A stretch of 12,737 bases of DNA, taken from a virus. Taxonomy: Duplodnaviria > Heunggongvirae > Uroviricota > Caudoviricetes. A program made the position numbers and the translations under genes. The stretch is from the IMG/VR virus record IMGVR_UViG_2526164663_000020. One strand, given 5' to 3'. Below, piece after piece: positions 8,180-12,737 of this stretch. Numbering within the stretch: position 1 is the first letter of the stretch; each line of letters starts with the position of its first letter. The notes beneath the pieces are model-generated. The model saw only the letters and a list, made by a program, of their open reading frames with translations. It made no database searches and had not been told where the DNA came from.

Positions 8180-8584
8180 TCACTTATTACTGTTCGTTTC
8201 CATGGGATTGGCCAAGAAATCAAAATAAGGCAGAGTGAACCTACCAAGGTTTGACATGAGGATAATTTGCTCGGCATATGTTTTTATATAGGGATATGCC
8301 ATATTGGGAGCAATGGACCTTACCTCATATGATTTTGCCATTTCATGAGAAAAATCATCTTCTGACCGGAAGTCAAAGTCGTATGTGATGTCCATCTCAA
8401 GCCTGCCTTCAATAGTTACGGAGGCAAAATATCTCACTCTAAATAGCTTTGAATCCTTCACATTAGTGTAAAGTTCATTATTTAGATTAACGGTTGTTTT
8501 TATGGCTTTTTTTGCTGTTGAATCGCCTTCTAGCCGTGTCATAACCAAGCGTTCAACTTTTTTGCTAATGAGTTCAATTTTCAT
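8180..8584 (-). CDS. SecB-like chaperone, putative third component of a toxin-antitoxin-chaperone module
   Basis: 134 aa. The segments FRVRYFASV and APNMAYPYIKTYAEQIILMSNLGRFTLPYFDF parallel E. coli SecB LRVTVTAS and [33 protein letters not shown] as I recall them. Weak RBS. Lies 82 nt downstream of the antitoxin gene on the same strand. Confidence 0.6.
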   Translation of the reverse strand: MKIELISKKVERLVMTRLEGDSTAKKAIKTTVNLNNELYTNVKDSKLFRVRYFASVTIEGRLEMDITYDFDFRSEDDFSHEMAKSYEVRSIAPNMAYPYIKTYAEQIILMSNLGRFTLPYFDFLANPMETNSNK

Positions 8585-8666
8585 GGTAATAATAAGTAAT
8601 TTCCGTCAGAAGTCATTTCGTCATTCAGGTTGCTAGCCGCTGTGAAACTTGATGACAAGTTACTTA

Positions 8667-9236
8667 TCAAAGAAAAACATTCCGTTTTTCTTTGCATTTG
8701 CCATTACCCCTTACTGCGCTGAACAACATTTTTGAAAAGTAAGATTCTGTAGCCTTTTCAGCGAAATAAGCAGAAGGTGATGTGACGGCTGACTCACACC
8801 GAGCAATGACGCTAGTCATGGCTGTTTCTTCTTCCTCTGCGTCAACTAGGCTCCATTCAATTGCGCTCATATCTTGAATTAAGATATCTGCAGGAATTCC
8901 AAGTCCGTCATGTAGTCTACGGATCATTGAAAGACTTAATGGACGCTTACGATTTAAGACCTCAGATACTTTAGATGCTGAGCCAATGTATTGTTTCATA
9001 TCGGCATAAGAGAGGCCTTGTTGATCCATACGGAACTTGATTGCTTCTATGGGATCTGGCTTGTCCATAGGGAACTCGCGTGACTCATAGTGCTCGATAA
9101 GCAAGCCTAGTAGTTCAAACTCATCAAAATCTTCAGTTCCAGGTTGTAAATCACTAGACGCAAGTTCAATGAGCCTTTCCATAGCTGCAGCATGCTCTTC
9201 ACTATTTTTAATGATGCGCCAGCTAGTTCGATTCAT
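8667..9236 (-). CDS. HigA-like HTH antitoxin with a C-terminal extension of about 70 aa
   Basis: 189 aa. The start overlaps the toxin stop by 4 bp (ATGA). The central segment …MKQYIGSASKVSEVLNRKRPLSLSMIRRLHDGLGIPADILIQ resembles the HTH region of E. coli HigA as I recall it. The tail (…SPSAYFAEKATESYFSKMLFSAVRGNGKCKEKRNVFL) is absent from canonical HigA. Confidence 0.65.
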   Translation of the reverse strand: MNRTSWRIIKNSEEHAAAMERLIELASSDLQPGTEDFDEFELLGLLIEHYESREFPMDKPDPIEAIKFRMDQQGLSYADMKQYIGSASKVSEVLNRKRPLSLSMIRRLHDGLGIPADILIQDMSAIEWSLVDAEEEETAMTSVIARCESAVTSPSAYFAEKATESYFSKMLFSAVRGNGKCKEKRNVFL

Positions 9237-9520
9237 TTAAGCCTCCACTTGTCGTACTCTGCATGAGTTCCAACTCTTTCAACTATGACCATTCCTGCCT
9301 GGTAAACAACTTGGACAACGAGCCGATAGTTATTGCCTTTTATATTAAAAATTACCCTGTTGTTAGGAAGGAAGTCGGCAGAATTAAATCTATTCCGTAT
9401 GTCTTGAGTCGTTTTCCAGTTTTCTCTTATCACTTCATCATACCAAGAGTCTAAAGCCCCCTTGGCCTGATTGTGCTTCCGGCTAAAACTGTGAAGCTTC
9501 TCTACGTTTAAGACCTTCAT
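9233..9520 (-). CDS. HigB-like (YgjN-type) RelE-fold mRNA interferase toxin
   Basis: 95 aa. The C-terminal half …NNRVIFNIKGNNYRLVVQVVYQAGMVIVERVGTHAEYDKW resembles E. coli HigB as I recall it. The toxin gene precedes the antitoxin, as in higBA operons. Confidence 0.7.
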   Translation of the reverse strand: MKVLNVEKLHSFSRKHNQAKGALDSWYDEVIRENWKTTQDIRNRFNSADFLPNNRVIFNIKGNNYRLVVQVVYQAGMVIVERVGTHAEYDKWRLK

Positions 9521-9656: not shown

Positions 9657-10361
9657 TCACGAACTTTTCAGCCACTCCCTTGCCTCGATGTCATCCAGAT
9701 GGCGAGATTGCTTCAGAATACCAGCCACATACTCCACCTTTGCTACTTGATGATAAGGCAACGTTATTGGCCTGTGGTCCTGGTTGATGCTTGTAAATTG
9801 GTATTCTCCGTCTCTGTCATAGCCAAGAACTTTGATCATGTTGTGTCCTTCAACAGTTCTGACAAACACCTCATCACCCGGGAATACTTTGGTGTTAGGC
9901 TCAATGAGTACATATTCTCCTGATTTTATTCTGGGCCACATGCTGTCTCCTTTCACACGAAGACCAAAGGCATCTGGATCATCGCTATAAATTTTGAGCC
10001 ACCCATCGCGCTCTTCGGTCATCTCGATGGCACCATCAACACCAAGAATTGCCTCACCAACCACGCGCACTAACCCTTTTCTTACCTGACCGACAAAAGT
10101 TAAAGAATCTGAGCATGATGCAATTGGTGTTACATCATGTACCAAATCAAGCCACCCATTAGGTAACCCAAGCGCGGCTTCAAATTTTCTTGCTAGTTTA
10201 TCCCCTATGTTTCGAGTGCTTTTTTCACCGGAGACTTGCGTGAGTTGAGAAGGGCTAACCCCAAGCTTATCGGCAAAGCTTGCATTAGTGTTACCCGCGA
10301 TTTTTTTATGCTCATCTAGCAAAAACGCCAGATTCGATTTGCGAATATCTTTGTTTTCCAT
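9657..10361 (-). CDS. cI: cI-type prophage repressor (N-terminal HTH, C-terminal S24 LexA-like autopeptidase domain)
   Basis: 234 aa with an HTH region (…FADKLGVSPSQLTQV…) and a C-terminal GDSMWP motif typical of S24 self-cleaving repressors. Divergently arranged with cro. Confidence 0.85.
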   Translation of the reverse strand: MENKDIRKSNLAFLLDEHKKIAGNTNASFADKLGVSPSQLTQVSGEKSTRNIGDKLARKFEAALGLPNGWLDLVHDVTPIASCSDSLTFVGQVRKGLVRVVGEAILGVDGAIEMTEERDGWLKIYSDDPDAFGLRVKGDSMWPRIKSGEYVLIEPNTKVFPGDEVFVRTVEGHNMIKVLGYDRDGEYQFTSINQDHRPITLPYHQVAKVEYVAGILKQSRHLDDIEAREWLKSS

Positions 10362-10474: not shown

Positions 10475-10708
10475 ATGAGTAATGAACTACTACGCTGGCG
10501 AAAAGAGGCTTCTAGTGAGGAATGGAAGCGACTCGCCGCATTAGCGAAAACTTCAGTTGGCTATCTTGACCAGATTGCATATGGATTTCGAAGAGCTTCC
10601 CCTGATAAAGCGAATGCAATCGAAGAAGCTACTCGTAATTTCACGGGTTATAAACCTGTGAAAAAGGAAAACCTAGTGTTCGTATCGCGTAGAGCATCGG
10701 CTGCATAA
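10475..10708 (+). CDS. cro: Cro-like repressor
   Basis: 77-aa ORF with a strong Shine-Dalgarno, transcribed divergently from cI and followed by nutR and cII. Confidence 0.7.
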   Translation: MSNELLRWRKEASSEEWKRLAALAKTSVGYLDQIAYGFRRASPDKANAIEEATRNFTGYKPVKKENLVFVSRRASAA

Positions 10709-10846: not shown

Positions 10847-11143
10847 ATGGAACAAACAAGTTACAGCAAACTATCACAGCGAGAAATTGATCGCGCTGAA
10901 ACTGATTTACTCATCAACCTGTCAACGCTTACCCAGCGCGGTCTGGCAAAGATGATTGGCTGTCATGAATCGAAGATAAGCAGAACGGACTGGAGATTTA
11001 TTGCTTCGGTCTTGTGTGCTTTCGGAATGGCATCAGACATCAGTCCGATTAGTAGGGCTTTTAAGTATGCGCTTGATGGAATCACAAAGAAAAAATCCCC
11101 GGTGGCCGCCGGGGACTCTAAGCAAATTGATATGCAATTCTGA
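10847..11143 (+). CDS. cII: CII-like transcriptional activator
   Basis: 98 aa. The C-terminus …KKKSPVAAGDSKQIDMQF parallels lambda CII …KKRPAATERSEQIQMEF, and the gene sits between cro and O. Confidence 0.75.
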   Translation: MEQTSYSKLSQREIDRAETDLLINLSTLTQRGLAKMIGCHESKISRTDWRFIASVLCAFGMASDISPISRAFKYALDGITKKKSPVAAGDSKQIDMQF

Positions 11144-11175: not shown

Positions 11176-12114
11176 ATGACAAATACAGCAAAAATACTCA
11201 ACTTCGGCAGAGGTAACTTTGCCGAACAGGAGCGTAATGTGGCAGATCTCGATGATGGTTACGCCAGACTATCAAATATGCTGATTGAGGCTTATTCAGG
11301 CGCAGATCTGACCAAGCGACAGTTTAAAGTGCTGCTTGCCATTCTGCGTAAAACCTATGGGTGGAATAAACCAATGGACAGAATCACCGATTCTCAACTT
11401 AGCGAGATTACAAAGTTACCTGTCAAACGGTGCAATGAAGCCAAGTTAGAACTCGTCAGAATGAATATTATCAAGCAGCAAGGCGGCATGTTTGGACCAA
11501 ATAAAAACATCTCAGAATGGTGCATCCCTCAAAACGAGGGAGGTTCCCCTAAAATGAGGGACATCCCTCAAAACGAGGGAAAATCCCCTAAAACGAGGGA
11601 TAAAACATCCCTCAAATTAGGGGATTGCTATCCCTCAAAACAGGGGGACACAAAAGACACTATTACAAAAGAAAAAAGAAAAGATTATTCGTCCGAGAAT
11701 TCTGGCGAATCCTCTGACCAGCCAGAAAACGATCTTTCTGTGGTTAAACCGGATGCTGCAATTCAGAGCGGCAGCAAGTGGGGAACAGCAGAAGACCTGA
11801 CCGCCGCAGAGTGGATGTTTGACATGGTGAAGACCATCGCACCATCAGCCAGAAAACCGAATTTTGCAGGGTGGGCTAACGATATCCGCCTGATGCGTGA
11901 ACGTGACGGACGTAACCACCGCGACATGTGCGTGCTGTTCCGCTGGGCATGCCAGGACAACTTCTGGTCCGGTAACGTGCTAAGTCCGGCCAAACTCCGC
12001 GACAAGTGGACCCAACTCGAAATCAACCGTAACAAGCAACAGGCTGGCGTGACAGCTGGAAAACCAAAACTCGACCTGACAAACACTGACTGGATTTACG
12101 GGGTGGATTTATGA
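11176..12114 (+). CDS. O: Replication initiator O (lambda type), 312 aa
   Basis: Near-identical over most of its length to lambda O as I recall it (MTNTAKILNFGRGNFA…TDWIYGVDL), with a 13-aa insertion (GSPKMRDIPQNEG) in the iteron-encoded segment. Confidence 0.95.
   Translation: MTNTAKILNFGRGNFAEQERNVADLDDGYARLSNMLIEAYSGADLTKRQFKVLLAILRKTYGWNKPMDRITDSQLSEITKLPVKRCNEAKLELVRMNIIKQQGGMFGPNKNISEWCIPQNEGGSPKMRDIPQNEGKSPKTRDKTSLKLGDCYPSKQGDTKDTITKEKRKDYSSENSGESSDQPENDLSVVKPDAAIQSGSKWGTAEDLTAAEWMFDMVKTIAPSARKPNFAGWANDIRLMRERDGRNHRDMCVLFRWACQDNFWSGNVLSPAKLRDKWTQLEINRNKQQAGVTAGKPKLDLTNTDWIYGVDL
11524..11690. repeat. Replication origin inside O: six 18-19-bp iterons plus an AT-rich region
   Basis: Iterons of the form ATCCCTCAAAACGAGGGA at about 11524, 11544, 11563, 11583, 11607 and 11630, followed by AT-rich cacaaaagacactattacaaaagaaaaaagaaaagattatt (11649..11690). 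Confidence 0.85.
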
Positions 12115-12737
12115 AAAACATCGCCGCACAGATGGTTAACTTTGACCGTGAGCAGATGCGTCGGATCACCAACAACATGCCGGAACAGTACGACGAAAAG
12201 CCGCAGGTACAACAGGTAGCGCAGATCATCAACGGTGTGTTCAGCCAGTTACTGGCAACTTTCCCGGCGAGTCTGGCTAACCGGGACCAGAACGAACTGA
12301 ATGAAATCCGCCGCCAGTGGGTTCTGGCTTTCCGGGAAAACGGGATCACCTCGATGGAACAGGTTAACGCAGGAATGCGCGTAGCCCGTCGGCAGAATCG
12401 ACCATTTCTTCCATCACCCGGGCAGTTTGTTGCATGGTGCCGGGAAGAAGCATCCGTTATCGCCGGACTGCCAAACGTCAGCGAGCTGGTTGATATGGTT
12501 TACGAGTATTGCCGGAAGCGTGGCCTGTATCCGGATGCAGAGTCTTATCCGTGGAAATCAAACGCGCACTACTGGCTGGTTACCAACCTGTACCAGAACA
12601 TGCGGGCCAATGCGCTGACTGACGCGGAATTACGGCGCAAGGCTGCCGATGAACTGACCTGTATGACAGCACGAATTAACCGTGGTGAGACGATACCTGA
12701 ACCAGTAAAACAACTTCCTGTCATGGGCGGCAGACCT
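12111..12737 (+). CDS. P: Replication protein P (lambda type), 5' part; continues beyond the right edge of the window
   Basis: ATG at 12111 overlaps the O stop (ATGA). The translation MKNIAAQMVNFDREQMRRI…NAHYWLVTNLYQNMRANALTDAELRRKAADEL… matches lambda P as I recall it. It is absent from the ORF track because no stop falls in the window. Confidence 0.9.
   Translation, partial: MKNIAAQMVNFDREQMRRITNNMPEQYDEKPQVQQVAQIINGVFSQLLATFPASLANRDQNELNEIRRQWVLAFRENGITSMEQVNAGMRVARRQNRPFLPSPGQFVAWCREEASVIAGLPNVSELVDMVYEYCRKRGLYPDAESYPWKSNAHYWLVTNLYQNMRANALTDAELRRKAADELTCMTARINRGETIPEPVKQLPVMGGRP

Follow-up and report, generated by a model that had tools for sequence, protein, structure and literature searches.

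The six-iteron, lambda-type replication origin in the O gene of a Stx1a-type lambdoid prophage and its four-iteron counterparts

Iteron origins of lambdoid phages and plasmids are composed of direct repeats, the binding sites of the initiator, adjoining an A+T-rich unwinding element. In phage lambda the origin is located inside the O gene, coding for the initiator, and comprises four iterons, annotated at 39034–39118 of the lambda record (NC_001416). In the replication regions of Shiga toxin (Stx) phages six iterons are found, compared with four in lambda, and the O protein is longer by 13 residues (PMC7466680, Kozlowska et al. 2020); that paper credits the original comparison of Stx phages with lambda to Nejman et al. 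2009, and Nejman 2011 is cited there as well. The O protein of 933W also differs from that of lambda by the substitutions G17E, L37I, and S282G, and its iteron 3 by one base (PMC7466680).

The O proteins and origins of 933W and P27 have been assayed by EMSA, DMS footprinting, and plasmid transformation (PMC7466680). On a six-iteron template only the four iterons nearest to the A+T-rich tract were efficiently protected, be it by the O protein of lambda, P27, or 933W, and the two pR-proximal iterons, including the one called iteron 1', were bound by O weakly in vitro. With iteron 1 or 1' disrupted, a P27-derived plasmid no longer gave transformants in any host tested. The weaker DNA binding of the Stx-phage O was attributed to its alterations relative to lambda O, i.e., the point substitutions together with the 13-residue insertion, and the authors proposed that the additional sites serve to concentrate O locally or to make the O-some of a lower-affinity initiator more stable (PMC7466680). 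Here, a six-iteron array located in a 12,737-bp stretch of viral DNA (IMG/VR record IMGVR_UViG_2526164663_000020, the whole of which is referred to as the window) is compared with these systems.

The iteron array within the O gene

The replication origin of the window and the genes surrounding it comprise the following features.

9657–10361, minus strand: gene of a cI-type (LexA-family) repressor (open reading frame; annotation of the matching genome)
10475–10708, plus strand: cro-like gene, the first of the rightward (pR) operon (open reading frame; a 234-nt gene there in the matching genome)
10847–11143, plus strand: cII gene, upstream of O, on the pR transcript through the origin (open reading frame; annotation of identical regions)
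11176–12114, plus strand: O gene, coding for the replication initiator (312 aa) and containing the origin (open reading frame; DNA identity with 933W)
11523–11561, plus strand: 39-bp unit absent from lambda, 13 residues, in one of two equivalent placements
11524–11541, plus strand: iteron 1, ATCCCTCAAAACGAGGGA, at the pR-proximal edge of the array, "ori iteron 1" of 933W, same sequence as iteron 1''
11544–11561, plus strand: iteron 1', TTCCCCTAAAATGAGGGA, a diverged copy of iteron 2, "ori iteron 2" of 933W
11563–11580, plus strand: iteron 1'', ATCCCTCAAAACGAGGGA, counterpart of lambda iteron 1, "ori iteron 3" of 933W
11583–11600, plus strand: iteron 2, ATCCCCTAAAACGAGGGA, counterpart of lambda iteron 2, "ori iteron 4" of 933W
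11607–11624, plus strand: variant iteron 3, ATCCCTCAAATTAGGGGA, lambda iteron 3 with one G-to-A change
11630–11647, plus strand: iteron 4, ATCCCTCAAAACAGGGGG, counterpart of lambda iteron 4, "ori iteron 6" of 933W
11649–11690, plus strand: A+T-rich, purine-skewed tract (the DNA-unwinding element of a lambda-type ori), 42 nt, directly after iteron 4
12111–12737, plus strand: 5' part of the P gene (DnaB-helicase loader), running off the window (position homologous to 933W P)

A repeat search placed six copies of an 18-bp iteron of the ATCCCTCAAAACGAGGGA type, all of one family, at 11524–11647. They begin at 11524, 11544, 11563, 11583, 11607, and 11630, which gives start-to-start spacings of 20, 19, 20, 24, and 23, and their arms, TCCCTC...GAGGGA, are legible in the sequence. 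The degenerate motif TCCCYYAAAWYNRGGG matches all six on the plus strand and nothing else on that strand of the 12.7-kb window; its sole additional match is the minus-strand, palindromic reading of one copy of the array (called iteron 3). By chance the motif is expected 0.03 times, and none of 200 shuffles reached seven matches. With 0.03 matches expected and six adjoining sites observed, a miscount or a chance occurrence of repeats is excluded. The tract following iteron 4 has an A+T content of 76% (54.5% in the window as a whole) and consists of 69% purines on the plus strand, its best 40-nt stretch corresponding to the 99.9th percentile of the window.

The array lies in the middle of the 312-codon O gene, whose product contains the Pfam domain Phage_rep_O (PF04492) in residues 22–115 (E = 1e-35). 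The start of P, annotated by PGAP as "replication protein P" in the matching genome, overlaps the O stop codon. In the annotation of that genome the cro-like gene and the LexA-family repressor gene diverge from each other, and the order repressor (minus strand), cro, cII, O, established from the open reading frames of the window and this annotation, places the origin downstream of cro–cII on the predicted pR transcript. The structural hallmarks of a lambda-type origin are therefore present, i.e., iterons inside O, an A+T-rich tract to their right, a Phage_rep_O initiator, an overlapping P gene, and cro–cII upstream. Unlike iteron origins generally, in other lambdoid phages and in plasmids, the iterons of the window are located in the coding sequence of their own initiator.

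The origin was compared with that of lambda (NC_001416) by alignment of DNA and of protein, including a three-way alignment of the window, 933W, and lambda. The window and lambda have in common the location inside O, the iteron consensus, the spacing of the four distal iterons (20, 24, 23), and an identical A+T-rich tract. In the 250-column ori alignment they are distinguished by a single in-frame gap of exactly 39 bp (13 aa), outside which they differ at two positions, one of them the G-to-A change in iteron 3. The gap corresponds to two additional pR-proximal iterons in the DNA and 13 additional residues in the protein; outside the insertion the O proteins are 99% identical, with three substitutions, G17E, L37I, and S282G (lambda numbering). 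Because the first and the third iterons are identical, the insertion can be read in two registers, as GSPKMRDIPQNEG (O residues 123–135) or, in the MAFFT alignment, as IPQNEGGSPKMRD (residues 117–129), both representing one insertion.

The earlier note had counted six iterons where lambda has four, and the repeat search, the motif count, the alignment with NC_001416, and the annotation of the 933W record agree on that number. Its further description held as well: the 39 bp and 13 residues added to an otherwise lambda-like O are the single exact gap, the peptide GSPKMRDIPQNEG is a valid placement of the insertion with IPQNEGGSPKMRD as the alternative, and the interval 11524–11690 spans the array together with the A+T-rich tract. 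The alignment with lambda and 933W that it had suggested as a check gave four iterons for lambda and identity of the window with 933W throughout.

The O gene of the window is 100% identical in DNA, over 939 bases, to that of 933W and to those of some 25 additional Stx1 and Stx2 phages that have been deposited. In the 933W record (AF125520, NC_000924) the protein-O binding sites "ori iteron 1" to "ori iteron 6" are annotated at homologous positions, and, relative to lambda, 933W O shares with the window the 13-aa insertion as well as G17E, L37I, and S282G. In P22, P32, Stx2 phage I, and AU5Stx1, O with its six iterons and A+T-rich tract is likewise 100% DNA-identical to the window, and the P27 O gene is 98.6% identical. 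The prophage of the window differs from 933W in the immunity region, the nin region, and an IS600 insertion, while the origin is without any difference. The traits of the six-iteron 933W/P27 type are thus all found in the window: the insertion of 39 bp and 13 aa, G17E, L37I, S282G (a trait of 933W only), and the G-to-A change in iteron 3.

As regards the source of the DNA, the window as a whole aligns at 99.9% with chromosomes of O26-type STEC; for Stx1a-converting phages (LC744xxx series) the identity is likewise 99.9%, with 90% of the window covered. The corresponding segment of strain 00_3305 is an integrated prophage adjoining wrbA, with the gene order int, xis, recombination and early-left genes, LexA-family repressor, cro, cII, O, P, ren, nin, Q, stxA1a/stxB1a, esterase, lysis. 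The toxin genes stxA1a/stxB1a lie outside the window; in strain 00_3305, the 99.9% match of the whole window, stxA1a starts 6.6 kb downstream of O. Judged from these matches, the window is derived from a wrbA-integrated Stx1a prophage of an O26-type STEC. We therefore regard it as very likely, with no evidence to the contrary, that the feature is the 933W/P27 form of a six-iteron lambda-type ori, inside O, of a Stx1a-converting lambdoid prophage.

Such an origin is already known, having been annotated for the identical sequence in AF125520 and studied biochemically, and it is not a new kind of element. What is added here is that there is no strict linkage of the six-iteron form to stx, that the reading frame constrains iteron number, and that natural four-iteron counterparts exist. 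Once a Stx prophage is induced, its replication multiplies the stx genes, a prerequisite for high toxin output; how Stx-phage origins differ from that of lambda therefore bears on EHEC virulence and on strategies directed against replication.

Iteron number, O alleles, and stx carriage

The segment 11523–11561 is a tandem copy of 11562–11600, with 35 of the 39 positions identical (90% identity in the repeat-search family). This suggests that the six-iteron state arose from the four-iteron one by an in-frame tandem duplication of the iteron 1–2 pair, 4 of whose 39 positions subsequently diverged; alternatively, six iterons may be the older state and lambda's four the result of a deletion. As the origin lies inside a coding sequence, the duplication adds 13 residues to the O linker, and only those changes of repeat number that preserve the frame give a functional O. 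With spacings of 20, 19, 20, 24, and 23, the frame survives a step of 20+19 = 39 but is lost in most other steps from one iteron to another. Two unusual BLAST matches in finished E. coli genomes (L084, NZ_CP147056.1, 1226–1290, and L085, NZ_CP024155.1, 1226–1282) are O pseudogenes with three iterons, annotated by PGAP as frameshifted, in which out-of-frame iteron-to-iteron deletions have taken place: one is a lambda-type origin devoid of iteron 2 (−20 bp), and the other a six-iteron origin with iterons 1'' and 4 fused (−67 bp).

The distribution of the two forms was surveyed in the best 80 IMG/VR loci encoding a close relative of O. Exactly six iterons, spaced by 20, 19, 20, 24, and 23, are found in 40 of them, and exactly four, spaced by 20, 24, and 23, in the other 40; no other iteron number occurs among the intact O genes of these best 80 loci. 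A phage collection and finished genomes were queried with the 86-nt six-iteron junction. In the phage collection 72 records contain the complete junction, and in 34 the match ends at the point of divergence expected of a four-iteron origin; among the matches listed, all the records named as Stx phages have the six-iteron junction, and the four-iteron group consists of lambda and its relatives. The junction is also present in 362 of 5,426 finished E. coli genomes, in up to four copies per genome, and the six-iteron form occurs in a dog isolate with a genome of 4.76 Mb.

Linkage to stx was judged locus by locus, on loci extending far enough downstream. No stx was found in any of the 16 four-iteron IMG/VR loci with at least 9.5 kb of downstream sequence. 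Six-iteron loci were considered informative when they reached the esterase gene just beyond the stx position, downstream of Q; stx, always stx1, is present in three of these 15 IMG/VR loci and absent from the remaining 12. Three six-iteron prophages of finished genomes were inspected as well: that of RM11911 carries stx1a, and those of CAU16175 and UTME-14 are without stx. Moreover, Stx phages of the Eru1, Eru2, and Eru3 types, a large share of Stx phages, have no O/P origin (PMC8044961).

The possibility that six iterons are a strict marker of stx is rejected, since 12 of the 15 IMG/VR loci and two of the three finished-genome prophages lack the toxin genes. The six-iteron origin is typical of lambdoid Stx phages and their stx-negative relatives, being neither necessary nor sufficient for stx, and in practice iteron number is no proxy for stx carriage. 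The statement in the earlier note that six iterons are characteristic of Stx-converting phages is borne out by the 933W record, the published work (PMC7466680), and the Stx1a context of the window, and has to be restricted in view of the stx-negative loci and prophages and of the Eru types devoid of O/P.

In several six-iteron loci (L010, L013, L030, L035, L040, and L041 from IMG/VR, and L087 and L089 from finished genomes) stx is missing, and Q is followed immediately by the esterase gene and the lysis genes. Some of these stx-negative prophages, relatives of Stx phages, have a 933W-like Q gene.

The 81 complete O genes represent 50 DNA alleles and 32 protein alleles. Three IMG/VR loci, L043, L044, and L049, encode an intact 299-aa O with four iterons, G17E, and the A variant of iteron 3; their further substitutions are L37I and S282G in L043, L37I in L044, and I112T and S282G in L049. 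Conversely, G17E is absent from two six-iteron loci, L040 and L041, whose iteron 3 is of the lambda form. In finished genomes the same query found both the four-iteron form (a 461-nt match in one piece) and the six-iteron form (a 500-nt span), each at 99.2–99.6%. The four-iteron alleles of the 933W type are natural counterparts of the six-iteron allele, devoid of the 39-bp unit only.

Matches H188–H192 in finished genomes likewise have an intact four-iteron O on a 933W-type background.

The view of the six-iteron form as a single O lineage is rejected, as both forms occur on nearly identical O backgrounds. Two processes could account for the pattern of alleles, namely recurrent gain and loss via the identical iterons 1 and 1'', or recombination between alleles. 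Tentatively, and with somewhat more doubt than confidence, we propose that iteron number switches repeatedly between four and six via iterons 1 and 1'', the six-iteron form marking a pool of lambdoid prophages, mostly of STEC-type and livestock-associated E. coli, rather than stx. If this is true, the four-iteron alleles on the 933W background would be ready-made controls and would suggest that the additional pair is conditionally useful and not essential, contrary to what the published plasmid disruptions imply.

Possible role of the additional iterons

From what is known of ori-lambda and from PMC7466680, O dimers would be expected to bind the iterons by their N-terminal Phage_rep_O domain and to wrap the DNA into an O-some, which would destabilise the adjoining A+T-rich tract and lead to its unwinding. 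The P protein would then bring the host DnaB helicase to the O-some complex, and transcription from pR through cro–cII–O is expected to activate the origin. Published footprints on an identical sequence show the strongly bound core to be the four iterons adjoining the A+T-rich tract. The two pR-proximal ones would probably serve as weak auxiliary sites, either increasing the local concentration of O or stabilising the O-some of the lower-affinity, Stx-type initiator. This auxiliary role is less secure than the identity of the feature, and the additional pair may be dispensable in nature, because intact four-iteron O alleles with 933W-type substitutions exist. The earlier note had suggested that iteron number can change O-some assembly; this idea had already been put to experimental test and is thus not new, and in vitro no more than four of the six sites were bound strongly. 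The comparison of four and six iterons that it proposed as an experiment has also largely been carried out in the published work (PMC7466680).

A rather unlikely alternative is that the additional iterons are a selectively near-neutral, in-frame tandem duplication, spread by hitch-hiking and recombination and with no influence on the workings of the origin, and that the four distal iterons are still the functional origin. The strong binding of these four alone on a six-iteron template by lambda, P27, or 933W O agrees with such neutrality, while the failure of the P27-derived plasmid with iteron 1 or 1' disrupted to transform any host tested disagrees with it (PMC7466680). The disruptions, however, being located inside the O frame, also change the O coding sequence, so that the effect of the site would be confounded with that of the protein and the plasmid result cannot cleanly separate them. 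The alleles, too, point both ways: iteron number is not tied to lineage, as the same O background is found with four iterons and some six-iteron alleles lack G17E, but in the 40 six-iteron loci the iteron cores, those of the additional pair included, are almost invariant, most of the variation being confined to the 1–3-bp spacers. Similarly, lambda reportedly grows normally with three iterons, according to earlier work cited in PMC7466680, whereas replication of Stx-derived plasmids is reported to differ from that of lambda in its dependence on DnaA and on transcription (PMC7466680).

We consider it improbable that the effect comes from the protein, with the 13 residues lengthening the linker between the DNA-binding N-terminal and the P-interacting C-terminal domains of O, and thereby giving a looser O-some and a lower need for transcriptional activation. 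The insertion does begin directly after the end of the Phage_rep_O domain at residue 115, and a "space barrier" formed by these residues, making the O-some less compact, is suggested in the abstract of PMC7466680; yet the weaker binding of the Stx-phage O was ascribed there to the substitutions and the insertion jointly, which does not isolate the linker. Finally, nothing was found to suggest that the number six reflects a miscount or an artefact of assembly (a falsely expanded repeat, for instance), and such an error is hardly conceivable given the identical six-iteron sequence in the 72 phage records and 362 finished E. coli genomes and the preservation of the intact 312-aa reading frame.

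Other features of the window

In the early-left arm, the segment 630–1892 of the window is a 1264-bp IS600 element (IS3 family), located in the region of a DUF551 gene. In strain 00_3305 IS600 is found 490 bp further left, after window position 146, and the two elements, occupying different sites, are therefore independent insertions. Most of the related Stx1a phages are without IS600, which explains why they cover 90% of the window.

The immunity region comprises, on the minus strand at about 8180–9520, a HigB-family toxin gene, an HTH (HigA-like) gene, and one more small gene, as annotated in the matching genome. The HigB- and HigA-like genes form a toxin–antitoxin pair lying between the N region and the cI-type repressor gene.

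Among the matches in the phage collection, the record MW057783.1 (hit H101), named "Campylobacter phage CJLB-4", shows the same match to O and ori as phage lambda does and has a lambda-like length (48361 bp); it looks like lambda DNA deposited under another name.
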